From assembly GCA_040954595.2 (NCBI GenBank), contig CM082583.2, positions 280,542-344,541 on the forward strand: a DNA stretch of 64,000 nucleotides, read 5' to 3'. This document shows, piece by piece, positions 11,855 through 62,440 of the stretch. The translations under genes were made by a program, and so were the position numbers. The notes under the pieces are model-generated. The model did not search any database, had not been told where the DNA came from, and saw nothing but the letters and a program-made list of their open reading frames with translations. Every line of letters begins with the position of its first letter. The stretch's first letter is position 1. This DNA comes from Balanoglossus misakiensis. Lineage: Eukaryota; Animalia; Hemichordata.

Positions 11855-12492
11855 AAAAATCGTGTCAAGGACACAATGGTCCCATTGAGGAATTGCACAA
11901 GAAAAAATGTACACCGGAGTACACTTTTTCACATATACAGACAGACAGACACACACACACACACATAGCGAGAGATCAATGGGCAAGCACTGACTGACCC
12001 ATAAGCTGCCAATGGCATTTGTACTGTACATACACTAAATAGAACAGCTGGTCTCTTTAAAACTTAGCCAGTTATGTAATCATTCAAGAATTTGCTGTGT
12101 ATATAAACAACTCAATAAAGTAAATACACACCACTTCGTAAAGCAATCTGACCAGTAGTTCTTGAGTTACTGAGTTTTGACCAAATTCACAGTTTCCCAG
12201 CTAATTTGCATATTTTTGGCAATGACAACTTCATTTGAACGAACTCCCATCTACAGCCCAGCCTGCATCTGCAAACAAAATATCAAGGTGATACACGCAG
12301 AGGTTTTTTAAGTTTTTGATGTGGACGGACATACAGACATACACACATACACACATACATACATACATACATACATACATACATACATACATACTGTTAC
12401 ATACATACATGCATGCATACATACATACATACATACATACAGACGCAACCTGTCCCATAAGGTCCCATGGTACATACCAATGGGACCTAATC
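11855..12492 (+). mobile_element. HINE-like element with (CA)n and (CATA)n microsatellites
   Basis: Colinear with 22288-22895; terminal GGTCCCATGG...ATGGGACC hairpin. Confidence 0.7.
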
Positions 12493-22287: not shown

Positions 22288-22895
22288 AAAATCGCATCAA
22301 GGACACGGCGGTCCCATTGAGTGATTACAAAGAAAAAGTCTACACCGGAGTACAGGGCCATATACAGACACACACACACACACATAGCGAGAGATCAATG
22401 GGCAAACACTGACTGACCCATAAGCTGCCATGGCATATGTACTACACATACACTAAATAGAACAGCTGGCCTCTTTAAAACTTAGCCAGTCATGTAATCA
22501 TTCAGAAATTTGCCGTGTTCATATGAATCACAGGAGGGGAGTTCCTGCCTAATTAAACCAACTCAATAAAGTAAATACACACCACTTTGCAAAGCAATCT
22601 GACCAGTACTTCTTGAGTTACTGAGTTTTGCCCAAATTCACATTTTTCCAGCTAATTTGCATATTTTTGGCAATGACAACTTCATTTGAACAAACTCCCA
22701 TCTAGAGCCCAGCCTGCATCAGCAAACCAAATATCAAGGTGATACACGCAGCGGTTTACAAGTTTTTGATGTGGACGGACATACAGACATCCATCCATCC
22801 ATCTATCCATCCATCCATCCATACATACATACACACATACATACAAACGCATCCGATCCCATAAGGTCCCATAGTACATACCAATGGGACCCAAA
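22288..22895 (+). mobile_element. HINE-like element; an uninterrupted version of the repeat the Academ element inserted into
   Basis: Colinear with 11855-12492 and with the flanks 28872-28927 plus 40651-40770. Confidence 0.7.
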
Positions 22896-28812: not shown

Positions 28813-29799
28813 TCTCAGATGAGTTGGTGATATTTTTGCTTGTGTTAGTCAACATATACCTGATAAGTGTAAAAAATTGCGTCAAGGACACAGTGGTCCC
28901 ATTCAGTCTACACGGAGTACATATACACAGTCAGATCCCACGGTGCTCATTTGCATATGAAAGTTCATCAAGCGAGCGACCGTTAACTTTCAAACAGACT
29001 GCAATAGGCCAATTTTCAAGGTGATTTTCAACTTGATTTTTATGCTCTGTTGTGCAATAAAATACCATGTTAGCTGGATAAATTACGAAAGTGATTCCCA
29101 TTTTTCACTGCAGACGTAAATTTTATGAAAATCTGTCGGTAATAGTAGAAGTTTTTAACGTGTTTTCAGTGGTATGTTGGTGACCCCGAAAGAGACGTCC
29201 ATAAACGTGTCAAAAAGCATTTGAAAACGACCTCGGAAGTTAACCAAACTTTCCTGACAGAGAGGTCTAATATCGGTCCCGACATCCATGAAAAGAAATT
29301 AATTCGAAATGCTTGTGTAACAGTCCGCTTAAAAATAATCGATGTCGTTCAACGATATGACCCGGAAGTATACGTTGACCTCTCCGGCTCCATGTTAGCC
29401 TTGTAAATACAGAAGTGTTGCGTTGATCGTGAAACGATACGTTTACCGTGGGGAAAACAGCTTTTGAAAGGCAATTCTTAAGTAAAACAGTTACTGGATA
29501 ATGTATAACACCCTAAGGTAACGTATTAGCCAAGTTTTAACTTAATTACTAGCCTGATTTCAATACAACATCGATCTATCGCCTACAAATGTAGGTCCCA
29601 TATGGACAGAATGCCAGGTTTACCATACATGACTACGTACGTGTGAGGAGCTCAGCTGGTGTATTTTTTTTCTCTTTATCGTGGCCTGGGATATTAGTAG
29701 ACATTTCGAGAATGCAAAATGCCAACTGTAACTTCAGAACCATTTCCCTTTATTCACTGATAATATATGCAATAAATATTTGTGTCTGATGGCAAGCAA

Positions 29800-30700
29800 T
29801 TTTTGTTGTCATCATTGCATTGGGCTGAACAGGACAGAGTTTGAGCTGATCAGCTGACTCCAAGTTTCGATTTGGAACATACAATTTGATCATATCAGAC
29901 AGATATGATGGTCCAAGTCTATGAATGAATTCAAAAATAAGAAATAAAATCTTGAAAACAATACGATCAGACACAGGTAACCAATGCAACTGAAATTGCA
30001 TTGATGTAAAAGGTGATTTTGGAACTAGCAGCAATATTTTGAACTTGAATACGGCTGATCTAGTACTTAGGGAGCCCAAATAAAAGTGAATTACATGAAT
30101 CTATTCAAAATGCAACAAAAGAAGGAACTTTATTGCTCTGTGGCGGCTTGAGATAAATATTTACAGACAAGTGCAATATGCTGCAAATGAAAAGCGACTG
30201 AATGGCAGATCTGTGCAATCATTGTCAGACAATGAACAGGTTTCAGAGCATCACATGCATTTCTGTAATCCCTCTGGCAGATAGATTACCCGAAGTAGCA
30301 GAAAAAATAACAAATTCAGTCTTATCGTTATTTAAACACAAGACATTTTCAGACATTCAGTACCGACATCGGAAATACAATGTTCTAGATTTGAAAGCAT
30401 TCTGGGAGCATTCTTCTTGGTAAAAGACAATGAAGAGCCATCTGCATAAAAGCTATGTACAGGCATCCATGACTAGAAACTAATTCACCTAATGGAGAAG
30501 TGTACATATTAAAAAGTATAGGACAAAGAACTGATCCCTGTGTTACCCCAGTGTCAAGCGGATAAAATGGTGATTGTTTGGAACACGGTTACAGTAACCA
30601 TGTCTGAAATTAACACATACACACAGGGTGCGATTGGAAAGGTATGACTGAAACCACAATAGGGCTGCAACCCACAAAAGACCAATCAATTTCATTGATG
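29800..30700 (-). mobile_element. Decayed L2-clade LINE ORF2 fragment inside Academ copy A
   Basis: ALLWFQSYLSNR, QGSVLCPILFNMYTSPL, FYADG and LHWLPVSDRIVFKIL..GPSYLSD motifs. Confidence 0.8.
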
Positions 30701-32147
30701 ATTCATTAAATGTCATCACAGTCACCATCATTGGAATCACAATCACCATTCTTTGAATTATCAGTTTGTTTTTCTTCCGTCCAGTTATATTCATCAGTCA
30801 GTTCGTCAAAGTCAGAATCAGTCTCGTAAATATTTCCCTCTTCTTCTCTTAAAATGTCAAATTAATGTGACTCCTCCTGTAAAATTGCATCAATGCTATT
30901 TTCCATATTATGATGTTCAGTATCAGTGATTGGTGATGGTGATTCTAATAGTGGTGACTTATCTGTATATTTTGGGCATACCCCATACTTTTTCGATGTG
31001 GTACAGAATCCAGGGTTCCCATTATGTGGATTACTGGAGTCATTGCATTGACACGCAGGGCCACAACCATTGTGGGTCTTATAACATTTACAACATCTGC
31101 TATTACAAGTTGGCATCTTTTTGCAGCCACACCCTTTTGTTAGCAACTCCAAATTATTTTTCACTTTTTCTAAATTGGCATCACTGTCCCAAATAATATC
31201 AAGTTCGCCGTTGCTTAGTCTGTATCCATAATTATTGAATAAGGGAAACGTAACATGGCACTGATCGGCCTGGGACCATTACTGAGAGACCCAGCATGAT
31301 CTTTTCCAGTGCAGTTGTAGGGCTTCAAAGGAAGGGATACATTCTTCCTCATACTGGATACGTGGCCAAATTGTTTCTCATATATATGTAAGCCATTTGA
31401 TGTGGTTATCTTTAAGACTGTTAGTGACACTGGCTACTTGTCGATAAAGTTCAAAAAGATGAGATGCATCAAATGCTTGGAAATGTTTCTTAACATAAAC
31501 ACTACCTTTTAAACGTATGAAAGCGAAAATTCCATTCCCTACACTGTCTACTGTTGTGTCTATCAGTGTTCCAAGTATAAGGGTGCCACTAGTTATAAAC
31601 TCAGGGTATTGAAAAAATGTCTTGTAGAAAGATATCTTTCCGATGCCTGCAAAGTATAGTCACAACCTGTGCATATGAACACTGTTTGAAATATTTTGCC
31701 TACATATTGGAGGGGAATATGTTGCAAATAAGGGTCTAAATTTAAATCTGATTTGAATTGATTCATGTCTAAATAAGTGAGATTGGATAAATCATTATCC
31801 AGTTGTAAAAATATCTCCTTTTGAACATGTTGATATAGTACTGGGAGGAGAACATGATAAGTATCGGTATCAGGGGAGTAAATAACACCTTTCTTGTAAG
31901 AGGACTGAACTGCATGAAGGATGCATCTACTGTCAGCTTCTTCATGACAACTTTTGGCTTCCCACTCAGACACAATTCCATTACTACCGACGAAAAGACT
32001 CTTGTCCCTATTTTCCCCATCAAAGCCACCTGCTGTAATGAGGACATGATCACCTTGCAGAGCCGGTACAATTATTTTTAAAGATGTGGCTGACAAGAAG
32101 TTCACTAGTTTTCTCTTGTTTGGCCTACAATTAATGTATGTTTTGAG

Positions 32148-33133
32148 CTAATATTATTGATTTCCTATTTTTTATGCATTTGTTTGTATTTTTCCATGTT
32201 ATTGGTAAAAAGTCTTCATTTCTGAAAGTGATGGGCTTACTTCTTTTAAATTTAGTATGAAGCTTCCCAATTGTTGTCTGAGTAACCATAGTTGTGTTCA
32301 AATTGTTGTAAAATTTGCATATTTATAATTTTGAGCAATATTTGCCATTTTTGGTCAATTTTTTTTTCCTGTAAAACCGCATGCCGGATTGCTTTGCAAT
32401 TTGGTAGGCATGTTCGTAGGTGTAACCCAAATAATATGTTGTAAAAAATGTGATATTTTCATAAATGTGTTATCGGGGAAACTTTTGCAATTTTTGTCAA
32501 AAAATGTTTTCCTGAAACTGCTTGTCATATTGCATTGAACTTTGGCAGCATGTTCCTTGTAGTGGTTGAAGTAAGGTATTGTACAATTTTGTGTTTTTGC
32601 CACTTTTGAACAAATATTTTTTTGTGAAACTGCTTGTTGATTGCTTTGAAATTTGTTTTTTCTCTGATTGCTTTGAAATTTAGGATATAATTTCATAACA
32701 CATACATGTATATGTGCAACTTTTATTCAATTCTGATATCACAAATATTCAATATTTAGCGAGTTTTTTCTCCTAAACCAATTGTCCAGTTGTTTTGAAA
32801 GTTACTGTTTACAAGGAGTTGTTACCCCCAACTGAGACATGTTTACATAACTTCAATAAGCCAGCTGTTAGAGAGACCATGGGCTATTAAATTGTTTATT
32901 ACTAGTGGCAGGTCAGTGTGTGTGTCTGTCTGTCTGTCTGTTTCAGAGCTGACTGAAAGAAGTTGCTTCTCATATGTGTTTGTACAGACAATTTTTGGTC
33001 AATTTTTTTTACATTCCATATTTCTATATCGTAAGATCATATATGCTTGCAATGTCACCTGTAATTTTTATTCTGGTGTGTCACTGTTTCCGCATAATCC
33101 TCAAATGGGACCACAGTGTCCTTGACGCTATTC
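32148..33133 (-). mobile_element. HINE-like insertion in the Academ ORF (copy B ~53907-54962)
   Basis: TGGGACCACAGTGTCCTTGACGC is the reverse complement of the HINE 5' motif; AT-rich and non-coding; left boundary approximate. Confidence 0.55.
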
Positions 33134-33721
33134 TTTGCTGTGTCATCTGAAAATATATTAGTTAGCTCCCTGGCGGTATTAAGTGGTGAAAATACATCAG
33201 CACCTTCAAGACAATTGATATACAACCTGCAGTTTGACTCATGTATTTTATGTACACTAACTGAATTATGGGTTTCATTTTAGAAAGAAAATAACTGATC
33301 TTTTAGATTCTTGGCAGCCATAGCTCTATAGGGTAAATAAATTGCTATTCTCTCCATTAACCCACCTGTAGAAGTATGCAATGCAGCTTTAACATCTTTA
33401 TTGACGCACATTTCATGGGCTTCATCTAGTGCTACATTAACCCAAGTTGAGCCTGACAAATTGCAAACAAAACCACCTGCTTTGAAATGTCACAACAGAG
33501 AGTTTGGCATCTTCAGAAGGTCAGCAAGGTGTCTGGGAATTAACCTCAAGTACAGGGATCGGTCATATGCATGGAACAGTTGGTTCATTTTTTTCAAAGC
33601 CGATATTCGAAGGTTCCAATTTCCTGACCTTATTGCAATGTACAAAGACATGTATGCAAACAAATCTTCCTCTATAAATCTAACCCAAAATTTGAAAGTT
33701 TTGTCTGTATTTGCCCTTCTG

Positions 33722-34345
33722 CACAGTACGTGAAATATCCCATAATTCATTCTGATTTGTACAATTAGAGATTACTCAGTCAAACCAGGCAAAGTGTAGA
33801 GAGAATTGTAGACCACTAATAGAAATTTTGAGATCTTACTTTTAAGGTGAATCTTATTGTCAATTACCATTTCAAATGATTTAGAAAATTATGTATTATT
33901 GAGAGAGAAGATACGAATTTTATAAAATAATCAAGCAATTGCATAGCCAGCCATACCAAAAAGTTTGGAGTAAAACAGGGACACTTGAAACACCTGTTTA
34001 ATCAAACAAAAAGATATTGATATTTTCTTTTGACAGAACAATGGAAATTTACATGTTAACTTTCAACAGAGACTGGCCACCTCAGTCAATCATTGCTTGT
34101 TTCCTCATTGCTTGTTTCCTCCGAAGTGTGGCATTTGCAGTACATGAATACTTTGATTCTTAATGCTTTTAAATTTTGATTTTGGAATTTCACTCTAATT
34201 CCTCAACGTACTTTTCCTAGATAAACATAAATAGATTTATATGTACTTCATATCATTGTTAGTGTCTAAAACAGAAAAAGTTATTAAATGGGCAACCTTC
34301 GATGATACAAATCATGGAGAATTGTGGGTAAAATATCGTACTGTG
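33722..34345. mobile_element. Transib-like non-autonomous element, CACAGTACG TIR, 5-bp TSD TTCTG
   Basis: TTCTG|CACAGTACG...CGTACTGTG|TTCTG; removal restores the Academ frame FCDRRANTDK. Confidence 0.8.
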
Positions 34346-36929
34346 TTCTGTCACAAAAAATCTGAAATTCCTCTTGCAAGCGAGTAAGTTGAGCCTTAAG
34401 GTCACCATTAATTTTGTCAATATGATCAGCTTTATCTTCAGTACATTCCAAAGATTTTGTGACAGCTTCTAGTAATTATTTTTGGACTGTTTCTGTATTT
34501 AAGGGACAGTGCTGGGTATTATGGGTTTCACCCGTCTTATTCAAAAAGGAATTGACAACACATCTAAACATACTTTCCCAAATTTGTGTTAGGAAGCGAT
34601 GAGTTAGCTTGAAATTTGTACACTGTACTAGGGTTTCCAAAGTTCCCCCTTTATGATTGAACCCTGCCAGATGTTTTAGGCCAGCATCCCAGAATATTTT
34701 CATGATGACTGGTTGGTAATTTTTTAGAGTGTGCCAGTCTCTGATAAAAGGCTGCAACCAGTCTAAATTTGCACCATACATGTCTTTTAACTTTATCAGG
34801 TGATGGGAAGTTTTCCCATCACCAACCACAACCAGGTATTTTATTCTTACACCAACTCTGAATGTAACATATACAGCTTATTGATAATGTTATGGACAGT
34901 TTCAATGGTGTCTGCGTGTTCACTTGCTATGCCCAAATAAATGACATCTGAGCATTCACTGTCATCACTGTTAGCATTTGTTGCTAATGTTGATTTAAAA
35001 TCCCCAAAAACTGTTTCTATATCAGCTCTGTGCATTGCATTTTTCTGTAGAGCAAAAATGAATTGTCAGAAAACAGTTCTGACCAAGCAATGGCTTCTTC
35101 TTGTTTAATGTCAAAATCTGACAGCGAAATTGATGACCGTGGTTGATGTTGTCTCAGTAGAGGTGGTTTAAATACTACATCATCATGAACAGTATCATTG
35201 GATTTTTTTCTCCGTAAATGTACGGGCTTTTGCAATCAAACCTGTACCAGTATTTTTTTAGATAGATCTGTCAACCATGATTTTAGTATTATTTCCACAA
35301 ATTGCCAAAAATTTCATTCATTTCAGAGTCTACTGTATTTTGTGAACAAAAGCCACTGTTTAATTCCTGCCACCGTTCAAATGAATTCTGTGCATTTTCA
35401 CTCACCAGACTATCTTTACTTTTAATTAACTGCCTGTTAAGAAGCAAATCATAATGGCCTGGTTGACCTGGCCTGTCTGGTGTGTACAAGAGACAGACAG
35501 GCTCAGTCTTGGAGAACACATCACCATCACCTCTTGCAAATATATCATTCTGCTTGGTGTATATATGTAATGGACATTTTGCAACATACACTACAGATAA
35601 CATTTCTGGCATACCAGCATATTAATCTGCCTTTTCCATACATTGTGTCCTGTGCAAAATGTCCATATAACGAGTGCCGTCTAACAGGACATCAAGTTGT
35701 GCATCATCCATTCCTTCAAAGTATATATGATTGGCACGCATTATGTCTACTGTATCTGCTCTTAACTTGTCTGCGAATATTTTCTCTCGGTCAGCTAAAA
35801 TTGGGTCAGAAGGGAGTCCACTAGGTAGATGATCGCAATTTTGCAATGCAATATCATTTCTCACAGAGATGCTCCTGAAAAAGCACCTTCCACCACCATA
35901 TATGTTGATTAGCTTAAAATCTTTGACAGTTGAATGTTTGTCATGACTGCCAAAAACAATATCATCAACACTGTTCAAAATTGACTTTGGTTTTGGTTGG
36001 ACCATTTGATAAGAGGTACCGTGGAAACCTCTGTCCTTTGGATCAGCTCTAGCAGCTGCATATTTAGCTGATTTATCAATATTGTCAATGGAAGTTATAC
36101 AAAATGCATTATTTGCAATATTTTACTCTGTGAAATCAGCTGATGTTCTTTTGTTGATAACTCCCAACATGTATCTATGCAATGTATCTCCAGAACAAAT
36201 AATACCAAATCAATTTAGAATTTTCACTAGAGTAGATGACCTACTATAACCTTCAACAATATCAGCCAGGTAAGTATGCAATGGGTAAGTACAATGATCA
36301 GAACAAGTGAACAATAGCATACACACAAAACAAACGCCTGAGGAATCGTGCTCTACTCTCCATAGAGTGCTGGTCATAAAATCCATAGTAGTGTTTATTC
36401 CATTCAAAGTTGGGGCTTTTTAATTTACTGCATTCACTGTTGTTCAACGTTTTATCACATGAACTGGCCCCTATAGCCGCTTGTGTGACGTAGAACAGGT
36501 CGAATAAAAAATCCGAATTTACTCCTGTTCTACGTCATCAACCGGAACTATTTACACTGATTCGCCCGTCGCTGTAACTTTCTTGTGAAATGGAATAAAC
36601 AAGTGGATGAACCCGTAGTTGTACATAAGTCATATAAAACTGACGGTTCCATGACGGTTCCGTAAGAATATCGCTGGGTAAAATCAATACGAGAAAGGTA
36701 GAATTTGAAACGTCAACGCTACGATCATGAATGTGTGCTTGCAGCTAGCGGGCCTGGTCCCGAGCGAGCCAGCACATTGTCTTGATTTTAGGCTTACGGA
36801 AGTTACGAGAATGGTTTTGTTCCAGCTGAGCGGGATGACTAACACTCTGTATTCTGTCCACTGGTCAACGATAAGTATAAGACGTGGAAAAAACATCGCA
36901 ATTCATTTGTTTGAGAATCGAAAACATTT

Positions 36930-38815
36930 TAGTGGGGCAGTTAACAAAAAAATCGTGCACTTTGGGTTAAAAGCATGAAACTTGGTACACTTATGCATTG
37001 ACCCATGGCGGCCATTTTCTGATATGGATCCAAAATGACAGCGCCCTCTAGTGGCCAGAAACAGACATTCATACTTAAAAACCGTGCACTTCAGGTTAAA
37101 AGCCTGAAACTTGGTACACTTATGCATTGACCCATGGCGGCCATTTTCTGATATGGATCCAAAATGACAGCGCCCTCTTGTGGCCAGAAACTGACATTCA
37201 CACTTTCCCCCAATTAATGGCACTTTTTGGTCATTTGTAACACTCTGAAACAGGAATGTGGGTTGTAAAACATGCTTGCTACCATACATTCATGTGTATA
37301 CTGTGGAATACTTTTTGTTCGCGTGGAATTTATTTTGGCTGCTTTCGCGGAGGTAATTTTTGCGCGAAAATTTGTTCCAGCGGTATGTTTTGAACACAAT
37401 AGACATGAATATTAATGAGCTAGATCGACTGACGCAGTGACCTTTGACCACTGATTACTTGCATGTTACGTCTATGGAAAACAATCTGACACGGAACACG
37501 CACTCACGCTCACGCACTCACATGCCGACAGTCATTATCGACACCTAGTAATTGACACCATAACTAAAACTGGTTAAAAACAATAAAATCAAATGTTTGC
37601 CGACTCGATTGACACCCAAAACGCATTGTTTGTCACCTAACAGCAGCCTGTGATGTTTGTGTTTGACGACTTAGCTTTGTCGATGTCAATCTGACACGGA
37701 ACACGCACTAACGCACTCACATGCCGACAGTCATTACCGACACCTTGTAATTAACACCATAACTAAAACTGGTTAAAAACAATAAAATCAAATGTTTGCC
37801 GACTTGATTGACACCCAAAACGCATTGTTTGTCACCTAACGGCAGTCTGTGATGTTTGTGTTTGATGACTTAGCTTTGTCAACGTCTAATTTCAATTAGC
37901 GTACAGCGCCTTGGCTGATGACAATGTAAAGCGATCAGCGCGAAAATAAAGTCGCGCCGACGTATCGATTTTATCCATTGCGCGAAAATATATTCCAGCG
38001 ATAATAAAGTATTCCACAGTATTATCCTAATCCTGATATACATGTATCAGATCAATCTTGATTACATCTTCCTTCACAGTAACAATGACCACTGCTGTCA
38101 GACTAGACCTAAAGCACCTACAGAATCATGTCCATGACTTTTGGCCACTGATTTCCTGAGGTTGACTCTTTTCTTGGGCTTGACTAAGAGTTGTCCAACT
38201 TGATTTCCACTGGGATTCTGTTGGTTTGATATAGCTTTGCTAGGTTTCTCACAGCACATGTTCTTTAGATGCTGCCTGTATTCTCGAGAATGCTTGACTT
38301 TCTGGAGAAGAGGTGTTGTATTATCCCTTTGCATGACTTTGTGTATTGAACTGGTTGTTATTTCGAAGAACAAATCGTTCAATTAGTAACATACAAGATT
38401 GATCTGATGCATGTACATCAGGATTAGGATAATATTCAAAGGAATGTATGGGAGCAAGCATGTTTTACAACCCACATTCCTGTCTCTGAGTGTTAAACTT
38501 GCCCAAAAAGAGTCATTAATGGGGGGAAAAGTGTAAATGTCAGTTTCTAGCCACTAGAGGGCGCTGTCTTTTGGGATCCATATTGGAAAATGTCCGCCAT
38601 GGGTCAATGAATAATTGTACCAAATTTCATGATTTTAACCCAAAGTGCACAATTTTTAAGTATGAATGTCTTTTTCTGGCCACTAGAGGGTGCTGTAATT
38701 TTGGATCCATATCAGAAAACGGCCGCCACGGGTCAATGCATAAGTGTACCAAGTTTTATGCTTTTAACCCAAAGTGCACAATTATGCCAAAATGTGGGGT
38801 TTAGCTCCTGCACTA
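36930..38815. mobile_element. TAGTG...CACTA element with long subterminal inverted repeats, 3-bp TSD TTT (Academ-like non-autonomous)
   Basis: Empty site AAACATTTGT at 21121; filled ACATTT|TAGTG...CACTA|TTTGT. Confidence 0.8.
37301..38019. mobile_element. TA-TSD MITE with an internal ~205-bp tandem duplication
   Basis: TA|CTGTGGAATACTTT...AAAGTATTCCACAG|TA. Confidence 0.75.
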
Positions 38816-40964
38816 TTTGTCTGGGGTCCAAGGCTGAGATTCTGTACGACGGTTGTATTTCCGCGGAAGCACAACTGCGCTGACTAGCCAGGCCGACGCA
38901 AACGCAACCTTGAACCTTGAACATCGTTCCTGGACTAATATTTTTAATATCCTGTCACAATAACGGTTTTAGGATATATGGCAATGGAACTGTGTTTATT
39001 TTTTCATAAATTTTACAGTGAAGTGCGTCATTTTTTCTGTCAAACTGCGACTTGCAGCATAACTTTGCAGGCAACTCGACGCGATTAATTGCTAAGATGT
39101 TGTGTTGACATGTACACAGCGCGAGACAATGATTGACAGGCAAAATGTATCAAAATTCTGGCCCATGTGACTGACTCCGCGAATCTGATTGGTAGACAAG
39201 ACGCAAAAGTGTAAAAACTTGAAAGTCGATTTCACTTTATGAATGAAAGTGATTCCATAATTAGCATATCTCGTTGGGGCCACAGATCGTTGCGCAGGGG
39301 AAAGAACGTAATCCTGCTAAATAAACTACAAGGCCGCTCGAATATTTTAGCAGGATATTGGAATATTGTATCCTACCTCTTCTAACGAAAAATAAGAAGA
39401 CTGTTCATGTGATAAATATATAATCCCATGATATTTTTCTTTATTTAACGTCATCGTATACTCGTGGTTTTCGCGGAGTCTAGCAACTTCTTGCCTACGG
39501 CTCGAAGTTGCACGGCTCTGCGAAAACACTCGTATACGATGACGTCAAACAAAGAAAAATATCATGGGATTATATATAAAAATAGTATTCCATAACACAG
39601 GGTCAATCTCACTGACAATATATTCAACATCAAGTGTACTCAGATCAACAGTGTTTGTTTTGCAGTAATTACTGAATTTTTAAGATTGCTGATAAATGCT
39701 GACATTTAATTTCACAGCCACCAAATCAAGCATTTTGAAAAAGTCAACGTCAACTTTACTCAAGTCTCATACTTGCTTTTCAAGCCTCTCTATCTGTTTC
39801 TCAGCTTGCACAACATACTGGGGATGTTCGACAAGTGCATTTTGGAGGGCAATAGTGAGATCTGAACCCGTTCGGTACAAAAAGGTGGAGAACTTTCTAC
39901 TCACTTTTGATACAACAGAAAGGTGAATTGGATAATACACACATAGAAATTCCCGAATAAGCCAGCTATTAGGTTTTCTGTGGAATTCCACTGGTTGTAC
40001 CTTGACCTTGGGTCGCAAAGTCTGATATTCATCGTCTAAACAATCATTGAAATATTGCCTGACGTCAAACAATAGAAGGAGCACTTCTCCTAAAAACACA
40101 ACAGTTTTCCAGCATGCAAAATTCACCAAGTCGGTGTCACAGCTGCAGCCTTTTTGTAGCATTGTGACATATTTTTTAATTTCTTCAGCAAGTGCTATAT
40201 CACTCGACATAATTAGGCCTTGTTGAATACTACACGTTGCTTTTTCCGCTAAAGCAACAAATGTTTATAACATTTCAAACAAGTCAGGCTGTCTTGAGTA
40301 AGGGCAAATGGTGTGTTAGTTTGTTGGTGAATTGTTTGCACCATATCAAAATCAGGGATTTTAAACAAATTGTTTGCCCGTGATAAGCACGAAGTACACA
40401 AGGGATGGCTTTTTCTCACAGCAAGGATGTAGTGATGTTGACACAGTGGAAATGATGAAAATCCTTTAAAACCTGAGTTGGCTATACTCAATTTTGTACA
40501 CAGTCCTCCTCGCCTGAAATCAGCTCTATAATGTCGCGTAAAAAAATGGCCTATTTCGCGACCCTTCAGCGGGGCCCACGGTAACGGCTACATGGTATGA
40601 AGTACTTTCCCTCATTAACATATGTTAATGAGTACCATGCGATCTGACTGTACAGACACACATGCACAACGAGAGATTAACAGGCAAACACTGGCTGACC
40701 CATAAGCTGCCAATGGCATGTGTACTGTACACACAGCAAATGGTCTCTTTAACAGATAGCCAGTTATGAAAACATGCAGTTACCAATCACTGTTATTATT
40801 GACAAATTGCATCCAAGTCCAGACCCAGGCTTGAATACAATTTTTAAACAATAACAACATTGCTTACCCTGCTTCACCGAGCTGAACAAGAAATGATGGT
40901 TGATAACCAGCATAATACTGAATAAAAATTCAAAAGTTACAAATATAGGACCTTTCGTTGCCCA

Positions 40965-41330: not shown

Positions 41331-41355
41331 TATTTCTATATTGTGTTGATCTTAC

Positions 41356-43412: not shown

Positions 43413-43429
43413 AATCCACAGTTACATAC

Positions 43430-51272: not shown

Positions 51273-51392
51273 CTAAACAATTGACATGATCTGCACTCAG
51301 AGAAAAACCATCATCACCACAACTACAGCTGAATCCACCCTCTGCATTGTGACAACCTCCAGCACAAACAGAATCTGAACACTCATTCACAT
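51273..51392 (-). pseudogene. cbEGF exon, copy B
   Basis: Same peptide as 27932-28051. Confidence 0.88.
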
Positions 51393-54300
51393 CTGAAAAC
51401 AGAAAACAAAAACATCCATTGTAATTATTCAAGTCAATACCTATCCTCCCTTCCTTTAAAAATTTTCTTAAATTGAACAAATTCACATGGCTTTGAAATT
51501 AAGTATTAACAGTGATATTTCTAATATTTCTAACAGGCCTGACTTTTCTAAACGTTCAGTTTCTTTGTGGATTTGTAGAAATGATGTACAAACTGAGCTG
51601 TCAGGTCATAACTGTTTGTGCTTTGGCATGAACACATATCCCAGAATGCCCTACAGGGTTGGCAAAGAAATTGATAAACTCTTCACCTAAAATTTCAAAC
51701 TCGTAGATCTTAATTATATAGATTCTCACACTCCTGGCATGCTGAGAGTGTGGGATCAGAGTGTAAGAACAAATCAATCCCACACACTCACTGAATCGAA
51801 AGCTGTATATGACGCGAGCGCTGATTGGATGACAGAGCGTTTTTCAATAACGTGCGCTAAATGTTATCCAATGACAGGATAAAGAAACTACAACATGCCA
51901 GATGACAACTCAAGAGTCATTTATTCAATGTTTTAAGACGAATTTGGCTAATTTGTGCCCGTGTGAGAAATATAATCTCATACACAAAGGACCTAGGATC
52001 ATATTTCCCACACTTGTCAGGGATGTTTTGTCCCACATTCGCCTGCGGCTCGTGTGGGACAGAAAATCCCCAACTCATGTCAGAATTATGACCCCTAGTC
52101 CTTGGGAGTGTAAGATTCTATTAATCTCACAACCTTAGGACCTGGGATAAGATTTCTCAGATGAGTTGGTGAAATTTTTGCTTGTGTTAGTCAACATATA
52201 CCTGATAAGTGTAAAAAATTGCATCAAGGACACAGTGGTCCCATTCAGTCTACACGGAGTACATATACACAGTCAGATCGCACGGTGCTCATTTGCATAT
52301 GAAAGTTCATCAAGCGAGCGACCGTTAACTTTCAAACAGACTGCAATAGGCCAATTTTCAAGGTGATTTTCAACTTGATTTTTATGCTCTGTTGTGCAAT
52401 AAAATACCATGTTAGCTGGATAAATTACGAAAGTGATTCCCATTTTTCACTGCAGACGTAAATTTTATGAAAATCTGTCGGTAATAGTAGAAGTTTTTAA
52501 CGTGTTTTCAGTGGTATGTTGGTGACCCCGAAAGAGACGTCCACAAACGTGTCAAAAATCATTTGAAAACGACCTCGGAAGTTAACCAAACTTTCCTGAC
52601 AGAGAGGTCTAATATTGGTCCCGACATCCGTGAAAAGAAATTAATTCGAAATGCTATTTTCCATATTATGATGTTCAGTATCAGTGATTGGTGATGGTGA
52701 TTCTAATAGTGGTGACTTATCTGTATATTTTGGGCATACCCCATACTTTTTCGATGTGGTACAGAATCCAGGGTTCCCATTATGTGGATTACTGCAGTCA
52801 TTGCATTGACACGCAGGGCCACAACCATTGTGGGTCTTATAAACATTTACAACATCTGCTATTACAAGTTGGCATCTTTTTGCAGCCACACCCTTTTGTT
52901 AGCAACTCCAAATTATTTTTCACTTTTTCTAAATTGGCATCACTGTCCCAAATAATATCAAGTTCGCCGTTGCTTAGTCTGTATCCATAATTATTGAATA
53001 AGGGAAACGTAACATGGCACTGATCGGCCTGGGACCATAACTGAGAGACCCAGCATGATCTTTTCCAGTGCAGTTGTAGGGCTTCAAAGGAAGGGATACA
53101 TTCTTCCTCATACTGGATACGTGGCCAAATTGTTTCTCGTATATATGTAAGCCATTTGATGTGGTTATCTTTAAGACTGTTAGTGACACTGGCTACTTGT
53201 TGATAAAGTTCAAAAGGATGAGATGCATCAAATGCTTGGAAATGTTTCTTAACATAAACACTACCTTTTAAACGTATGAAAGCGAAAATTCCATTCCCTA
53301 CACTGTCTACTGTTGTGTCTATCAGTGTTCCAGGTATAAGGGTGCCACTAGTTATAAATTCAGGGTATTGAAAAAATGTCTTGTAGAAAGATATCTTTCC
53401 GATGCCTGCAAAGTATAGTCACAACCTGTGCATATGAACACTGTTTGAAATATTTTGCCTACATATTGGAGGGGAATATGTTGCAAATAAGGGTCTAAAT
53501 TTAAATCTGATTTGAATTGATTCATGTCTAAATAAGTGAGATTGGATAAATCATTATCCAGTTGTACAAATATCTCCTTTTGAACATGTTGATATAGTAC
53601 TGGGAGGAGAACATGATAAGTATCGGTATCAGGGGAGTAAATAACACCTTTCTTGTAAGAGGACTGAACTGCATGAAGGATGCATCTACTGTCAGCTTCT
53701 TCATGACAACTTTTGGCTTCCCACTCAGACACAATTCCATTACTACCGACGAAAAGACTCTTGTCCCTATTTTCCCCATCAAAGCCACCTGCTGTAATGA
53801 GGACATGATCACCTTGCAGAGCCGGTACAATTATTTGTAAAGATGTGGCTGACAAGAAGTTCACTAGTTTTCTCTTGCTTGGCCTACAATTAATGTATGT
53901 TTTGAGCTAATATTATTGATTTCCTATTTTTTATGCATTTGTTTGTATTTTTCCATGTTATTGGTAAAAAGTCTTCATTTCTGAAAGTGATGGGCTTACT
54001 TCTTTTAAATTTAGTATGAAGCTTCCCAATTGTTGTCTGAGTAACCATAGTTTTGTTCAAATTGTTGCAAAATTTGCATATTTATAATTTTGAGCAATAT
54101 TTGCCATTTTTGGTCAATTTTTTTTTCTTTAAAACCGCATGCCAGATTGCTTTGCAATTTTGTAGGCATGTTCGTAGGTGTAACCCAAATAATATGTTGT
54201 AAAAAAATGTGATATTTTCATAAATGTGTTATAGGGGAAACTTTTTCAATTTTTGTCAAAAATTGTTTTCCTGAAACTGCTTGTCATATTGCATTGACCT

Positions 54301-55549
54301 TTGGCAGCATGTTCCTTGTAGTGGTTGAAGTAAGGTATTGTACAATTTTGTGTTTTTGCCACTTTTGAACAAATATTTTTTTGTGAAACTGCTTGTTGAT
54401 TGCTTTGAAATTTGTTTTTTCTCTGATTGCTTTGAAATTTAGGATATAATTTCATAACACATACATGTATATGTGCAACTTTTATTCAATTCTGATATCA
54501 GAAATATTCAATATTTAGCGAGTTTTTTCTCCTAAACCAATTGTCCAGTTGTTTTGAAAGTTACTGTTTACAAGGAGTTGTTACCCCCAACTTAGACATG
54601 TTTACATAACTTCAATAAGCCAGCTGTTAGAGAGACCATGGGCTATTAAATTGTTTATTACCAGTGGCAGGTCAGTGTGTGTGTCTGTCTGTCTGTCTGT
54701 TTCAGAGCTGACTGAAAGAAGTTGCTTCTCATATGTGTTTGTACAGACAATTTTTGGTCAATTTTTTTTCTAGCACTACTTGTAAGACTGTAATGACACA
54801 TGACAGTTTATTGGGCATGTTCCTTGTTAATTTTTTTTACATTCCATATTTCTATATCGTAAGATCATATCTGCTTGCAATGTCACCTGTAATTTTTATT
54901 GGGGTGTGTCACTGTTTCCGCATAATCCTCAAATGGGACCACAGTGTCCTTGACGCTATTCTTTGCTGTGTCATCTGAAAATATATTAGTTAGCTCCCTG
55001 GCGGTATTAAGTGGTGAAAATACATCAGCACTTTCAAGACAATTGATATACAACCTGCAGTTTGACTCATGTATTTTATGTACACTAACTGAATTATGGG
55101 TTTCATTTTGGAAAGGAAATAACTGATCTTTTAGATTCTTGGCAGCCATAGCTCTATAGGGTAAATAAATTGCTATTCTCTCCATTAACCCACCTGTAGA
55201 AGTATGCAATGCAGCTTTAACATCTTTATTGACGCACATTTCATGGGCTTCATCTAGTGCTACATTAACCCAAGTTGAGCCTGACAAATTGCAAACAAAA
55301 CCACCTGCTTTGAAATGTAACAACAGAGAGTTTGGCATCTTCAGAAGGTCAGCAAGATTTCTTGGAATTAACCTCAAGTACAGGGATCGGTCATATGCAT
55401 GGAACAGTGGGTTTATTTTTTTCAAAGCCGATATTCGAAGGTTCCAATTTCCTGACCTTATTGCAATGTACAAAGACATGTATGCAAACAAATCTTCCTC
55501 TATAAATCTAACCCAAAATTTGAAAGTTTTGTCTGTATTTGCCCTTCTG

Positions 55550-56181
55550 CACAGTACGTGAAATATCCCATAATTCATTCTGATTTGTACAATTAGAGAT
55601 TACTCAGTCAAACCAGGCAAAGTTCACATGTGTAGAGAGAATTGTAGACCACTAATAGAAATTTTGAGATCTTACTTTTAAGGTGAATCTTATTGTCAAT
55701 TACCATTTCAAATGATTTAGAAAATTATGTATTATTGAGAGAGAAGATACGAATTTTATAAAATAATCAAGCAATTGCATAGCCAGCCATACCAAAAAGT
55801 TTGGAGTAAAACAGGGACACTTGAAACACCTGTTTAATCAAACAAAAAGATATTGATATTTTCTTTTGACAGAACAATTGAAATTTACATGTTAACTTTC
55901 AACAGAGACTGGCCACCTCAGTCAATCATTGCTTGTTTCCTCATTGCTTGTTTCCTCCAAAGTGTGGCATTTGCAGTACATGAATACTTTGATTCTTATT
56001 GCTTTTAAATTTTGATTTTGGAATTTCACTCTAATTCCTCAACGTACTTTTCCTAGATAAACATAAATAGATTTATATGTACTTCATATCATTGTTAGTA
56101 TCTAAAACAGAAAAAGTTATTAAATGGGCAACCTTCGATGATACAAATCATGGAGAATTGTGGGTAAAATATCGTACTGTG
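55550..56181. mobile_element. Transib-like element, copy B
   Basis: TTCTG|CACAGTACG...CGTACTGTG|TTCTG. Confidence 0.8.
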
Positions 56182-57279
56182 TTCTGTCACAAAAAATCTG
56201 AAATTCCTCTTGCAAGCGAGTAAGTTGAGCCTTAAGGTCACCATTAATTTTGTCAATATGATCAGCTTTATCTTCAGTACATTCCAAAGATTTTGTGACA
56301 GCTTCTAGTAAACATTTTTGGACTGTTTCTGTATTTAAGGGACAGTGCTGGGTATTATGGGTGTCACCCCTCTTATTCAAAAAGGAATTGACAATACATC
56401 TAAACATACTTTCCCAAATTTGTGTTAGGAAGCGATGAGTTAGCTTGAAATTTGTACACTGTACTAGGGTTTCCAAAGTTCCCCCTTTATGATTGAACCC
56501 TGCCAGATGTTTTAGGCCAGCATCCCAGAATATTTTCATGATGACTGGTTGGTAATTTTTTAGAGTGTGCCAGTCTCTGATAAAAGGCTGCAACCAGTCT
56601 AAATTTGCACCATACATGTCTTTTAACTTTATCAGGTGATGGGAAGTTTTCCCATCACCAACCACAACCAGGTATTTTATTCTTACACCAACTCTGAATG
56701 TAACATATACAGCTTATTGATAATGTTATGGACAGTTTCAATGGTGTCTGCGTGTTCACTTGCTATGCCCAAATAAATGACATCTGAGCATTCACTGTCA
56801 TCACTGTTAGCATTTGTTGCTAATGTTGATTTAAAATCCCCAAAAACTGTTTCTATATCAGCTCTGTGCATTGCATTTTTCTGTAGAGCAAAAATGAATT
56901 GTCAGAAAACAGTTCTGACCAAGCAATGGCTTCTTCTTGTTTAATGTCAAAATCTGACAGCGAAATTGATGACCGTGGTTGATGTTGTCTCAGTAGAGGT
57001 GGTTTAAATACTACATCATTATGAACAGTATCATTGGATTTTTTTCTCCGTAAATGTACGGGCTTTTCTCACAGGTGCACTCAAACCTGTACCAGTATTT
57101 TTTTAGATAGATCTGTCAACCATGATTTTAGTATTATTTCCACAAATTGCCAAAAATTTCATTCATTTCATAGTCTACTGTATTTTGTGAACAAAAGCCA
57201 CTGTTTAATTCCTGCCACCGTTCAAATGAATTCCGTGCATTTTCACTCACCAGACTATCTTTACTTTTAATTAACTGCC

Positions 57280-57770
57280 TGTTAAGAAGCAAATCATAAT
57301 GGCCTGGTTGACCTGGCCTGTCTGGTGTGTACAAGTGACAGACAGGCTCAGTCTTGGAGAACACATCACCATCACCTCTTGCAAATATATCATTCTGCTT
57401 GGTGTATATATGTAATGGACATTTTGCAACATACACTACAGATATCATTTCTGGCATACCAGCATATTCATCTGCCTTTTCCATACATTGTGTTCTGTGC
57501 AAAATGTCCATATAACGAGTGCCGTCTAACAGGACATCAAGTTGTGCATCATCCATTCCTTCAAAGTATATATGATTGGCACGCATTATGTCTACTGTAT
57601 CTGCTCTTAACTTGTCTGCGAATATTTTCTCTCGGTCAGCTAAAATTGGGTCAGAAGGGAGTCCACTAGGTAAATGATCGCAATTTTGCAATGCAATATC
57701 ATTTCTCACAGAGATGCTCCTGAAAAAGCACCTTCCATCACCATATATGTTGATTAGCTTAAAATCTTTG
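57280..57770 (-). pseudogene. OTU cysteine-protease (deubiquitinase) domain within the Academ transposase ORF; copy A ~35440-35925
   Basis: IYGDGRCFFRSIS...LR...YAGMPE...PLHIY...LY...GHYDLL, with the catalytic D/C and H motifs. Confidence 0.9.
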
Positions 57771-60700
57771 ACAGTTGAATGTTTGTCATGACTGCCAAAA
57801 ACAATATCATCAACACTGTTCAAAATTGACTTTGGTTTTGGTTGGACCATTTGATAAGAAGTACCGTGGAAACCTCTGTCCTTTGGATCAGCTCTAACAG
57901 CTGCATATTTAGCTGATTTATCAATATTGTCAATGGAAGTTATACAAAATGCATTATTTGCAATATTTTCCTCTGTGAAATCAGCTGATGTTCTTTTGTT
58001 GATAACTCCCAACATGTATCTATGCAATGTATCTCCAGAACAAATAATACCAAATCAATTTAGAATTTTCACTAGAGTAGATGACCTACTATAACCTTCA
58101 ACAATGTCAGCCAGGTAAGTATACAATGGGTAAGTACAATGATCAGAACAAGTGAACAATATCATACACACAAAACAAACGCCTGAGGAATCGTGCTCTA
58201 CTCTCCATAGAGTGCTGGTCATAAAATCCATAGTAGTGTTTATTCCATTCAAAGTTGGGGCTTTTTAATTTACTGCATTCACTGTTGTTCAACGAATTGC
58301 TAGGACGTTGTGTTGACATGTACACAGCGCGAGACAATGATTGACAGGCAGAATGTATCAAAATTCTGGCCCATGTGACTGACTCCGCGAATCTGATTGG
58401 TAGACAAGACGCAAAAGTGTAAAAACTTGAAAGTCGATTTCACTTTATGAATGAAAGTGATTCCATAATTAGCATATCTCGTTGGGGCCACAGATCGTTG
58501 CACAGGGGAAAGAACGTAATCCCACTAAATAAACTACAAGGCCGCTCGAATATTTTAGCGGGATATTGGAATATTGTATCCTACCTCTTCTAACGAAAAA
58601 TAAGAAGACTGTTCATGTGATAAATATATAATCCCATGATATTTTTCTTTATTTAACGTCATCGTATACTCGTGGTTTTCGCGGAGTCTAGCAACTTCTT
58701 GCCTACGGCTCGAAGTTGCACGGCTCTGCGAAAACACTCGTATACGATGACGTCAAACAAAGAAAAATATCATGGGATTATATATAAAAATAGTATTCCA
58801 TAACACAGGGTCAATCTCACTGACAATATATTCAACATCAAGTGTACTCAGATCAACAGTGTTTGTTTTGCAGTAATTACTGAATTTTTAAGATTGCTGA
58901 TAAATGCTGACATTTAATTTCACAGCCACCAAATCAAGCATTTTGAAAAAGTCAACGTCAACTTTACTCAAGTCTCATACTTGCTTTTCAAGCCTCTCTA
59001 TCTGTTTCTCAGCTTGCACAACATACTGGGGATGTTCGACAAGTGCATTTTGGAGGGAATAGTGAGATCTGAACCCGTTCGGTACAAAAAGGTGGAGAAC
59101 TTTCTACTCACTTTTGATACAACAGAAAAGTGAATTGGATAATACACACATAGAAATTCCCGAATAAGCCAGCTATTAGGTTTTCTGTGGAATTCCACTG
59201 GTTGTACCTTGACCTTGGGTCGCAAAGTCTGATATTCATCATCTAAACAATCATTGAAATATTGCCTGACGTCAAACAATAGAATGGCGTGTTTTCTGAG
59301 GAGCACTTCTCCTAAAAAGACAGCAGTTTTCCAGCATGCAAAATTCACCAAGTCGGTGTCACAGCTGCAGCCTTTTTGTAGCATTGTGACATATTTTTTA
59401 ATTTCTTCAGCAAGTGCTATATCACTCGACATAATTAGGCCTTGTTGAATACTACACCTTGCTTTTTCCGCTAAAGCAACAAATGTTTTATATCATTTCA
59501 AACAAATCAGGCTGTCTTGAGTAAGGGCAAATGGTGTGTTAGTTTGTTGGTGAAATGTTTGCACCATATCAAAATCAGGGATTTTAAACAAATTGTTTGC
59601 CCGCGATAAGCACGAAGTACACAAGGGATGGCTTTTTCTCATAGCAAGGATGTACTGACATTGACACAGTGGAAATGATGAAAATCCTTTAAAACCTGAG
59701 TTGTCTATACTCAATTTTGTACACAGTCCTGTTCGCCTGAAATCAGGTCTATAATGTCACGTAAAAAAATGGCCTATTTCGCGACCCTTCAGCGGGGCCC
59801 ACGGTAACGGCTACATGGTATGAAGTACTTTCCCTCATTAACATATGTTAATGAGTACCATGCGATCTGACTGTACAGACACACATACACAACGAGAGAT
59901 TAACAGGCAAACACTGGCTGACCCATAAGCTGCCAATGGCATGTGTACTGTACACACAGCAAATGGTCTCTTTAACAGATAGCCAGTTATGAAAACACGC
60001 AGTTACCAATCACTGTTATTATTGACAAATTGCATCCAAGTCCAGACCCAGGCTTGAATACAATTTTTAAACAATAACAACATTGCTTACCCTGCTTCAC
60101 CGAGCTGAACAAGAAATGATGGTTGATAACAAGCATAATACTGAATAAAAATTCAAAAGTTACAGATATAGGACCTTTCGTTGCCCATATATTATATTAC
60201 CATGGTCTGTGCGTCGCATTTTAATTGGGCAAGATGAACGACATCACTGACCACAAATACCCAGTAATGGTTTGTTTACATGCCCGTAAATCTGAATAGT
60301 AATATTAGCAAATAGTTCAGTGAACACAACATTTTGCATAACACAAGTTCTGGGGCCCCTAGTCTTGTGTGTGGGACATTTTCATAAATATTGATGGTTT
60401 TCTTGAGATTGTTGGTAATGTAATGGAAATAAATGTAGGGCTCGGGCTCTAGGAAAGCCAAATTTCATGGGCTCAGAAGCCTTGCCCATGAATTTTGGGC
60501 TTTCCCCTCGCCCTTGCCCAAAAACAAACGTTAATGGTCAGGGCGTTGTGCATTATTTCTATATTGTGTTGATCTTACCTGTACACTCTCCATTGACCAA
60601 TCAATATTCCACAGCACAAGTGCAATAAAAAGAGCCTGCTGTATTCACACACTGGCCTCCACAAAGATCTGCTCTCTCCATATATTCATTGAGAAAAATC

Positions 60701-61692
60701 TGAAATCTGAAATCAAAGGTAGTTATTATTAATAAATTTATTATTATTTATTTCCTAACAAAAGTAATACACATACATCTCAGTGCATTTTCTACAGAAA
60801 ATAATAAAATTAGAAAACAAGTGAAAGCTTAAAGGATAAAAATTACACTTAAAAACCCCAAACAAACAGAAACAGTTCTGAAAGACAATCCCTATAAACC
60901 AAAAAAGCAATGGAATGAAATAGTGCTGAATAAAAGGACGAGTCTTAAAAACCCCTTTGAAAACTGTCAATAGATCCAGCATTGTGGATAGAAGGTGCAC
61001 AAACACTGAATCCTCTTTAGCCATATGCCTTGTTAAGTTTTGAAATGATCATTCACGGTGATGAGTTATCAAGAATATACCCGTTAAAAATTACTGTCCC
61101 CTCAGAGAAGCATTTTGTAATGAGATGAAAACTATATGAATTTTCTAAGTGTATATTTATTCTTTGCAGAGGTAATTTACTTAGCTATAGGTTGATAATT
61201 TATGTTAATTTCATTGAATTATGCAAATAAGTAGTGAAAATACTTGTACATGAATATATCAGACAGTCTTATAGTGTCGTGTGAGGTTGATGACACATAT
61301 TCTTAACCACATATTTCTTGATCAATTAATTGTGTTTACACCAAAGTCCTCAATATCCATGGCAATCTCTTCCTAGGAATTTTAACACTCTCTCCAAAAT
61401 CCCCTGAAACTTGTGTACCCTGTCAGCAAAACTTTGTCTGATTTTTAAAATACAGATTACTTCTTCACCCTTGCAAACACATTTTCAAAGATAAGTTTTC
61501 ACATTTGTTAATTTGTTTATATTATGCATAATTATAATTGGAACAATTCTAAGATACAATTTCAACAAACATGTGTTCAGTACAAGTGTGCGGTTGATTA
61601 CAAATTTTAAAATGTGTGCAATAGATAGACAGGATGTGTGTTTAGCTGATTGTAACCATAGCAATATGCAATCCCCAAACAGTGTAGCCACA

Positions 61693-62440
61693 AGTCGCTT
61701 GCACACGTGCAATGATTAGGGCGCCCTTTTTGGGATTATAAAAGTTGGTAAACATTTCTTATCAGCGACTCAAATAGTTTTGCATTCACATGTGTATAAA
61801 AGGGACGGGATCACCGCACTCAATGCGTCCACAGCAGCGTGGCTAAAGGTCGCAATGGCGGATTCAGTGATGTGTTTACTGTATATATAGCTCTGGACTT
61901 ATACCCAAACAGCGTATAAGTCCAGAGCTACTGTATATGGTACTCCTGAATTTGCTTTTTAAACGTCGCCGACGCCGATTTCATGGGCATTTGAATGAAC
62001 CGATACCGGTTTATGGTAACCTTTCATTGGAGGTTGCGCCTGGAAGTCTGCAGTCCATGCTACTAAATCGTCATCGGAGGTCGAGTTTGCAATTCCTTTG
62101 TATGTGCCTTGGCCATTTCCGCGTCACTCCAATTGTTGCCTCGAGACACTGCTTCGGCCATTGTTTTAGTAAAGTGAACCTCAACGCTTAATGCAGCGCT
62201 TAATGAGACAAACCGCGCCGGCAGAGTGCGTTTAGATCGGCGTTTAGTGCGGTGTTTCTGTTCACACGTGATTTGAATCGCTGTTTAGTGCGGCGCCCCG
62301 ACCCAGGTCCCACCCCTCAACACCGTCACAAAAAAGAGCGGCGCAGGGCCGCTCTCACCTTTTCACACGTGGCACTTACAAATTAACGCCGCCCTAGGGC
62401 AGCCGCTGGGGCGGCGTTGACGGCACGTGAGAAAGGCACT
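61693..62440. mobile_element. PIF/Harbinger-like MITE, 3-bp TSD ACA, absent from copy A
   Basis: ACA|AGTCGCTTGCACACGTGC...GCACGTGAGAAAGGCACT|ACA; empty site GCCACAGAAG near 43266. Confidence 0.75.

Follow-up and report, generated by a model that had tools for sequence, protein, structure and literature searches.

An OTU-fold domain within the putative transposase core of a dead AcademX-type transposon from Balanoglossus misakiensis

Transposon-borne OTU domains are already known. Ginger1 transposases carry a C-terminal OTU or Ulp1 domain for which a role in DNA repair was proposed (Bao et al. 2010, PMC2836005). OTU and VTD domains are also found on Helitrons (PMC9741609, PMC11417382); an anti-proteasome role was proposed for VTD, and transposon OTUs are described as unassayed as of 2022 (PMC9741609). 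Here we describe a dead transposon with terminal inverted repeats (TIRs), copy B, located on the minus strand of 64,000 nucleotides of the hemichordate Balanoglossus misakiensis (assembly GCA_040954595.2, contig CM082583.2, positions 280,542 to 344,541; this whole stretch is referred to as the window, and coordinates are counted from its first letter). The element encodes an OTU-fold domain between the first and second putative catalytic Asp of its DDE transposase. The insertion within a catalytic core, the multi-phylum spread and the graded decay series appear to be undescribed. No report of an OTU in Academ elements or inside a DDE domain was found in our literature search, which left the AcademH paper, Repbase/Dfam and supplements outside its scope, so that a prior mention is possible; the available parts of PMC5751038, PMC10799480, PMC4455052, PMC10294476 and PMC5718144 hold no Academ-OTU link.

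Ginger1 resembles this element in combining a DDE transposase and an OTU in one protein, in its occurrence in marine invertebrates and in its proposed repair role, but it is integrase-like with a C-terminal OTU appendage, whereas the present transposase is unrelated and has its catalytic domain interrupted by the OTU. The OTU and VTD domains of Helitrons are likewise optional deubiquitinases, captured more than once and with inactive derivatives in host genes; Helitrons, however, are rolling-circle elements with these domains outside the catalytic Rep/helicase, and VTD belongs to another fold class. P-element, Hermes and IS256/Mutator-type transposases share with this element an RNase H core whose second Asp and Glu are separated by a helical domain; none of them is known to have an enzyme domain between the first two Asp, where a second insertion is found here.

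AcademX elements have TIRs, one long open reading frame (ORF) and a C-terminal Cys cluster, and Academ termini are of the form YR...YR; AcademX and the Academ superfamily are said to have been described by Kapitonov and Jurka in 2010 and by Kojima in 2020. According to PMC10045372, AcademX has a target site duplication (TSD) of 3-4 bp and encodes a nuclease to which TSD length is linked, and the TSD of AcademH measures 9-10 bp. Copy B shares with AcademX the 4-bp TSD and, putatively, an encoded nuclease; its TIRs, single long ORF and C-terminal Cys cluster fit AcademX as well, and it differs in having an OTU inside the transposase core.

The OTU-fold domain and its position in the transposase

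Taken alone, the OTU reading frame of the window met no Pfam cut-off (best match Peptidase_C65, E 0.13; PF02338 unmatched), and phmmer gave no significant match to it in the PDB. A 61-sequence profile matched yeast Otu2 in the PDB (E 3.9e-9), as well as OTUD3 and OTUD5. The AlphaFold2 (AF2) model of the window OTU has a mean predicted local distance difference test score (pLDDT) of 92.6; with this model Foldseek placed OTUD3 first (E 7.8e-7), and VIA-align superposed it on OTUD3 with Z 14.4 and a root-mean-square deviation (rmsd) of 2.5 over 131 aligned positions, the top 31 rows all being OTU-type. The predicted fold, together with the relatives, establishes that the insert is an OTU fold, and the complete OTU domain of the preliminary description stands in this sense, its own Pfam match lying below the cut-off. 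Among 11 scanned relatives with the first-Asp segment (D1) and an OTU, four (P0029, P0032, P0034 and P0050) passed the Pfam OTU cut-off, and UniRef labels P0034 an 'OTU domain-containing protein'. Copy B retains GDGRC and GHYD, that is, the candidate catalytic residues Cys, His and Asp. OTUs of the OTUD1/OTUD3/Otu2 type and of nairoviruses are similar in fold (Z 12.7-14.4) and in the order of the GDGxC...HYD motifs, whereas identity to them is ~20% and the transposon type is longer, with about 165-170 aa matched.

Searches for relatives took 3 proteins, then the best 150 of 239, and the working set of 171 proteins is enriched for OTU by the choice of queries. D1 is present in 74 of the 171, with an OTU directly behind it in 24, no detected OTU in 36 and too early an end in 14. 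The order DNID-HGT-OTU-GD-DWH-DE was found in one chain in P0024 (Branchiostoma lanceolatum, 2213 aa), P0029 (Owenia fusiformis), P0032 (Amphiura filiformis), P0034 (Patiria miniata) and ENA proteins such as P0035; in P0024, P0029, P0032 and P0035 the nuclease-like region also follows the core. The NCBI relatives are gene models; P0035 (1893 aa) fills 5.7 kb of a 6783-nt contig and therefore leaves little space for introns. Unbroken lancelet, annelid and echinoderm proteins thus carry DNID, OTU and GD in a single chain, a combination that the preliminary description had suggested looking for. All bearers have the start of the insert at one position, just past HGTS..QPxP, and the distance from D1 to DWH is 428-495 aa with a complete OTU versus 178-291 aa without one, two partial cases (P0002 and P0142) measuring 357 and 369 aa.

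The AF2 model of P0034 (mean pLDDT 80, predicted template modelling score 0.65) places the OTU at ~496-667, with Z 13.5 to OTUD1. Its flanks, taken together (361-1196), superposed on the P-element transposase with Z 12.0 (rmsd 5.6, 340 aligned) and on Hermes with Z 8.9; integrase cores gave Z 6-7, a range that the tool calls non-specific. In this model a strand with D1 (441-450) and a second strand (464-474) precede the insert, which is followed by a strand at 856-863, a helix, a strand with the second Asp (893-897) and a strand at 919-923, with predicted disorder at 702-770. As modelled, both flanks rejoin into a single RNase H core in which the OTU is a guest domain, and the order of the secondary-structure elements makes it likely that the OTU occupies a long, partly disordered loop between core strands 2 and 3. 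The model and the motif spacing agree with the original placement of the OTU between the first and second putative catalytic Asp.

The element ends in CAGTCAGATCGCA at 52270, and the inverted version ends at 59873. Its terminal bases pair at 28 of 32 positions, with termini CAG...CTG, and a 13-mer of the TIR (at most 2 mismatches) matches only the four ends of copy B and of a second copy in the window, copy A. TACA is found on either side of both copies, and the pre-insertion sequence CATATACAGAC occurs at 11932 and 22359. Local alignment of the rejoined flanks to these uninterrupted copies of the host repeat gave scores of 176 and 194, compared with a median of 24 for 200 random slices of the window (six control slices, which presumably overlap repeat copies, scored 155-244). 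The ~32-bp TIRs, the TACA TSD and the empty sites reported in the preliminary description are thus corroborated. The TSD length comes from one insertion event, and the alternative of a 2-bp AC TSD with TIRs one base longer may apply. A further copy of the host repeat that received the element (the GACACAGTGGTCCCATT end) lies inside the element, at 54930-54960, on the edge of the segment that replaces ~214 codons.

TSD length, termini and domain order are the basis of a provisional AcademX-type label, no match being named Academ in the sources. The 4-bp TSD has the length of AcademX, and the CAG...CTG ends fit YR...YR. The DDE RNase H motifs DN.D, GD, DWH and DE are conserved in the relatives, in which DUF6589 is over the cut-off, and an acidic, nuclease-like motif set (EG, FD, ERxRR, EE.D, D.D, GCD) is present across them. 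The XPG/FEN1-like region gave weak matches to EXO1 (E 0.39) and, as a lead only, to the Atlas XPG_I cluster (0.79), Pfam XPG being unmatched; this assignment is one of motifs. The C-terminal cluster, first named 'Cys8', has nine Cys in the relatives; PF03638 was detected at E up to 1 in 9 of the 26 alignment members, with a best E of 2.6e-4 that does not reach the cut-off, and the LIN54 CXC domain at E 0.028. Two other assignments were rejected: AcademH, which has a RecQ-type helicase, as the TSD is of 4 bp instead of 9-10 bp and no helicase occurs among the 25 families shown for the 26 alignment members, and Ginger1, which has a Gypsy-integrase-like core (YPYY, H2C2, GPY/F) and a C-terminal OTU, as the OTU is internal, the best transposase fold is that of the P element and the integrase Pfam families are unmatched.

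Distribution and possible roles of the OTU

The same type of OTU lies C-terminal to DDE_1 in the pogo/Tc5-type proteins P0054, P0140, P0148 and P0150, and at the N-terminus of the DUF4371 hAT-type proteins P0040 and P0139; P0003 and P0067 look hAT-like from their flanking motifs. Across the pogo/Tc5-type set (P0054, P0077, P0140, P0148, P0150, P0153 and P0159) the C-terminal OTU has an intact dyad and is often accompanied by a PHD-like finger, seen as weak Pfam matches in P0150 and P0159, and across the hAT-type set (P0003, P0040, P0067 and P0139) the dyad of the N-terminal OTU is intact where covered. Three tandem OTUs, mostly dyad-less, are found in the ENA proteins P0031 (1502 aa) and P0041 (1438 aa). 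P0031 has a weak Mab-21_C match, and GS...DIDEFD in both proteins is presumably a Mab-21/cGAS-like nucleotidyltransferase motif; a host capture of a transposon OTU into an immune-sensor-like protein is possible. The transposon-type OTUs of Academ-, pogo- and hAT-type proteins together form a group of their own in an OTU tree (69 rows, unrooted, some group labels inferred from flanking motifs), with the pogo set on one branch (100/100) and a branch beside the Academ rows (96/95) that unites the hAT with the Mab-21 set. Since this tree is unrooted, no OTU donor is named.

We tentatively favour the reading that copy B is a dead AcademX-type element whose OTU, lying between the first two putative Asp, served as a tethered deubiquitinase that stripped degradative ubiquitin from the transposase. 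One large protein would be made, with the OTU folding as a separate domain and the flanks forming one RNase H core. The loop between strands 2 and 3 would tolerate the insertion, and cut-and-paste would proceed as in OTU-less relatives, with a transposase that likely acts like other RNase H DDE enzymes and a nuclease-like domain that would process the ends. By analogy with the biochemistry of the OTU family, the domain would cleave ubiquitin isopeptide bonds; its substrate would be the transposase or the DNA-bound complex, whose life would be prolonged against proteasomal clearance, and this is the least certain step. Both this role and the chromatin role considered below have already been put forward for other transposon deubiquitinases (PMC2836005, PMC9741609).

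Of the 24 proteins with D1 and OTU, 18 retain the catalytic Cys. Cys and His together are retained in all 10 relatives in which the profile covers the two sites, and in both window copies; two residues past the His, these relatives have Asp, Asn or Glu. When the OTU of copy B was compared with that of a contig of run X5, which comes from another organism and is about 91-92% identical, 39 differences were counted over 477 bases, in addition to an in-frame 6-base insertion; 18 changes are synonymous (99.5 sites) and 21 non-synonymous (374.5 sites), and both catalytic motifs are unchanged. The resulting dN/dS on the OTU segment, a check called for in the preliminary description, is 0.28 for this one pair (Fisher p 2.6e-4), a value that includes neutral decay in the dead copy. 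The OTU is probably an active deubiquitinase. The presence of the same OTU at three positions in three superfamilies argues for a role in tethering over one specific to geometry.

Several points weigh against the tethered deubiquitinase. The Cys is lost in 6 of the 24 proteins (P0004, P0037, P0043, P0045, P0068 and P0120), and the count of 10 relatives with Cys and His omits degenerate domains, in which the His site falls outside the coverage of the profile. With an OTU-free query, one of nine D1-bearing matches has an OTU; this protein, P0004, is the closest relative, and it has neither the Cys nor the His within a reading frame of 1227 aa. Faint OTU remnants are found at the same site in P0129, P0131, P0142 (Mytilus) and P0156, with 19.5-26.2 bits compared to at most 7.0 bits for 771 scored shuffles and at most 2.2 for clearly OTU-less inserts. 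By its sequence record the OTU is an optional, dispensable domain, decayed or absent across the family. In addition, the dN/dS comes from one pair and reports selection on the protein, not on catalysis; the assignment to strands 2 and 3 is inferred from the order of predicted secondary structure; and the data do not separate self-protection from chromatin substrates.

Splicing artefacts could explain some of the OTU absences seen in gene models. The P0002 gene model, from Amphiura, has both catalytic motifs but lacks the central part of the OTU, likely because of a false intron, which calls for caution with absences taken from such models.

A core tree without the OTU was built from 33 rows, selected because both core segments are present in them (425 columns, LG+G4). 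Ten intact-OTU proteins form one clade (99/98), and the window copy, P0024 and degenerate cases are placed among OTU-less proteins; a single clade of all 15 OTU bearers was rejected (approximately unbiased test, p 4.7e-5; 5 changes). The subclades (P0001, P0027, P0035) and (P0050, P0034, P0025) recur in the core and OTU trees, which suggests vertical inheritance. The remnants are best fitted by one old gain, mostly vertical inheritance afterwards and repeated decay or loss, with repeated gain or recombination at one site as a history that may also apply. Repeated decay or loss fits a useful, non-essential accessory in a conflict with the host.

We rank self-protection first, chromatin or break-site editing second, a passenger or binding module third and self-cleavage last. 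An active OTU may have acted on host chromatin near the breaks or the element, removing damage-signal ubiquitin (K63, H2A, PCNA) or H2A silencing ubiquitin, which we regard as possible, if on balance rather unlikely. Its location within the catalytic domain, which engages DNA ends, favours this role, as do the 5'-nuclease-like domain in the same protein and the PHD-like fingers, weakly matched in P0150 and P0159, at the ends of pogo-type carriers of the same OTU. TSD length in AcademX is tied to the nuclease (PMC10045372), and a DNA-repair function was proposed for the Ginger1 OTU/Ulp1 (PMC2836005). However, the N-terminal OTUs of hAT-type and the C-terminal-side OTUs of pogo-type proteins indicate that a position inside the core is unnecessary, and many relatives lack the OTU.

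The OTU might instead be a passenger that a permissive loop tolerates, or a module there that binds ubiquitin without catalysis. The survival of dyad-less versions in the long proteins P0004, P0045 and P0068 would suit this, and so would the eroded remnants, a loop that is long and disordered even without an OTU and the in-frame 144-bp OTU deletion in some public contigs of the family. Such a reading is nevertheless distinctly unlikely: the Cys, the His and a third residue, acidic or amide, are retained at ~25-40% identity and across three transposon superfamilies, and the OTU dN/dS of 0.28 points the same way. Some viral papain-like proteases self-process, and the OTU could similarly divide the 1700-2200-aa protein, which is very long and multidomain and has a disordered linker adjoining the OTU; we hold this to be very improbable, since a cut in the linker would, in the predicted structure, divide the RNase H sheet between catalytic residues, OTU-less relatives are just as long and the closest folds are ubiquitin-type OTUs. 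Finally, an origin as a recent nested fragment (from a Helitron, for example) lying in frame in one dead copy is refuted by the unbroken relatives, for although the element holds several true nested insertions, the OTU has the same site and frame in relatives of several phyla and is retained in a ~92% identical relative without two of those insertions.

A wider reading, doubtful as a whole, is that these elements represent a widespread, undescribed class of transposase with a working deubiquitinase in its catalytic domain, by which it removes ubiquitin from its transpososome and from the breaks it makes, and that this type of OTU moves among Academ-, pogo- and hAT-type elements as a counter-defence cassette, which hosts have captured on Mab-21/cGAS-like proteins in tandem copies that are mostly inactive. 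If true, this would point to a host defence that acts on DNA transposases through ubiquitin. At one site, close relatives have an OTU whose dyad is intact or dead, an eroded OTU or no OTU; they are natural controls, which make host limits on transposases through ubiquitin, and element counter-measures, directly testable. An RNase H core loop that accepts an enzyme of 170-200 aa is relevant to how transposases evolve and to the design of fusions. As for the two window copies, they are dead and functionally uninteresting.

Gene map, duplication and repeats of the window

All motifs listed in the preliminary description were located on the minus strand in the order given there: DNID (57931), FHGT (57871), GDGRC (57742), GHYD (57304), VGDG (56662), WHTLKN (56572), DEAHE (55254), HEEAD (53705) and TGCD (53429). 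DNID and the OTU do share one frame, at 57134-58054 (306 aa from stop to stop). With the long relatives, tblastn mapped the gene and three interruptions, at 58295-58791, 55545-56181 and 53907-54912 (Table 1). The first two are nested insertions, because a ~91% identical contig of another organism lacks both; contig 22 of run X5 passes from 55544 to 56182 without the second, and an intron at this place is ruled out by this probably-DNA contig. The ~214 codons lost in the third interruption include the first half of the 5'-nuclease-like domain. No TIRs were detected for the inserts at 55545-56181 and 53907-54912. PF20231 matches the 56182..56713 region at E 4.1e-5, which does not reach the Pfam cut-off.

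Contigs of runs X1, X3 and X4 lack 144 bases of the OTU, at 57413-57556, a loss of 48 codons that preserves the frame; these contigs represent another allele or a copy with an internal OTU deletion. No RNA source was listed for the OTU region, a result that carries no information on expression.

Table 1. Features of copy B, its target sites and copy A (window coordinates).
Feature	Position	Strand	Evidence or remark
Copy B of the TIR transposon (dead)	52270..59873	-	TIRs, TSD; colinear tblastn to 2213-aa P0024 and others
TIR, gene 5' end	59842..59873		28/32 complementary to opposite end
TIR, gene 3' end	52270..52301		pairs with opposite end
Left TSD, TACA	52266..52269	+	supported by empty sites
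Right TSD, TACA	59874..59877	+	
Empty target site, paralogous host repeat	11932..11942	+	
Empty target site, paralogous host repeat	22359..22369	+	
Broken N-terminal coding region (Cys-rich, helical in relatives)	58765..59756	-	weak tblastn pieces to P0024, P0128; ORF pieces
Nested insertion, long hairpin at 58624-58785; related copy near 21394-21877	58295..58791		contigs X1, X3, X4, X5 without it
First part of transposase core: SIDNID, first putative catalytic Asp codon 57931; FHGT strand; stop 58057	57833..58265	-	
OTU-fold domain	57284..57770	-	AF2, Foldseek, VIA-align, profile against PDB
Putative OTU catalytic codons	Cys 57730-57728 (GDGRC), His 57301-57299, Asp 57295-57293 (GHYD)		
Post-OTU helices, linker, third core strand; frameshifted	56683..57283	-	
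Second putative catalytic Asp (VGDGK, codon 56656-56654), DWH motif, start of helical domain (DUF6589-like)	56182..56713	-	
Nested 637-bp insertion breaking the reading frame	55545..56181		P0024 residue 1365 joins 1368 across it
Helical domain and DEAHE, putative catalytic Glu codon 55251-55249	54913..55544	-	
High-copy repeat DNA replacing ~214 codons	53907..54912		P0024 gap 1579-1793; depth peak
XPG/FEN1-like region (EEAD, DTD, GCD), frameshift near 53415	52837..53906	-	37% to P0024, E 1e-34
C-terminal Cys cluster (Tesmin/CXC-like)	52750..52841	-	tblastn to relatives
Copy A: same insertion, 1584-bp and 2637-bp extra segments, GDGRC>GGGRC, two further stops	28928..40650	-	

Copies A and B do not represent two transpositions; they are one dead insertion that was duplicated together with its flanks, since both sit in one tandem segmental duplication (~25875-45096 and 48467-63435, about 15-19 kb, 95-99% identical), with 89 differences between them in 7500 aligned bases. 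Both are dead with shared lesions, as first described, the in-frame stop at 58057 and the frameshift near 53415 being common to the two. In copy A, the change of GDGRC to GGGRC was confirmed, but the OTU frame holds two extra stops and not the single one noted before.

Each duplicate has later insertions of its own, which in copy A are at 29308-30891 and 36450-39086. Within the latter A-only segment, 36951-38783 is an element with 261-bp inverted arms (90%) that is related to 14426-14554. A repeat family in which one end forms a long and nearly perfect hairpin is seen at 58624-58785, 39416-39577 and 21710-21872, and similar hairpins with 70-bp arms occur at 11177-11319, 15944-16086 and 23874-24015. 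Tandem arrays occupy 3136-4301 and 47441-48468, in the form of five 225-239-bp units and of a diverged array near 47.4-48.5 kb, and the latter borders the segmental duplication.

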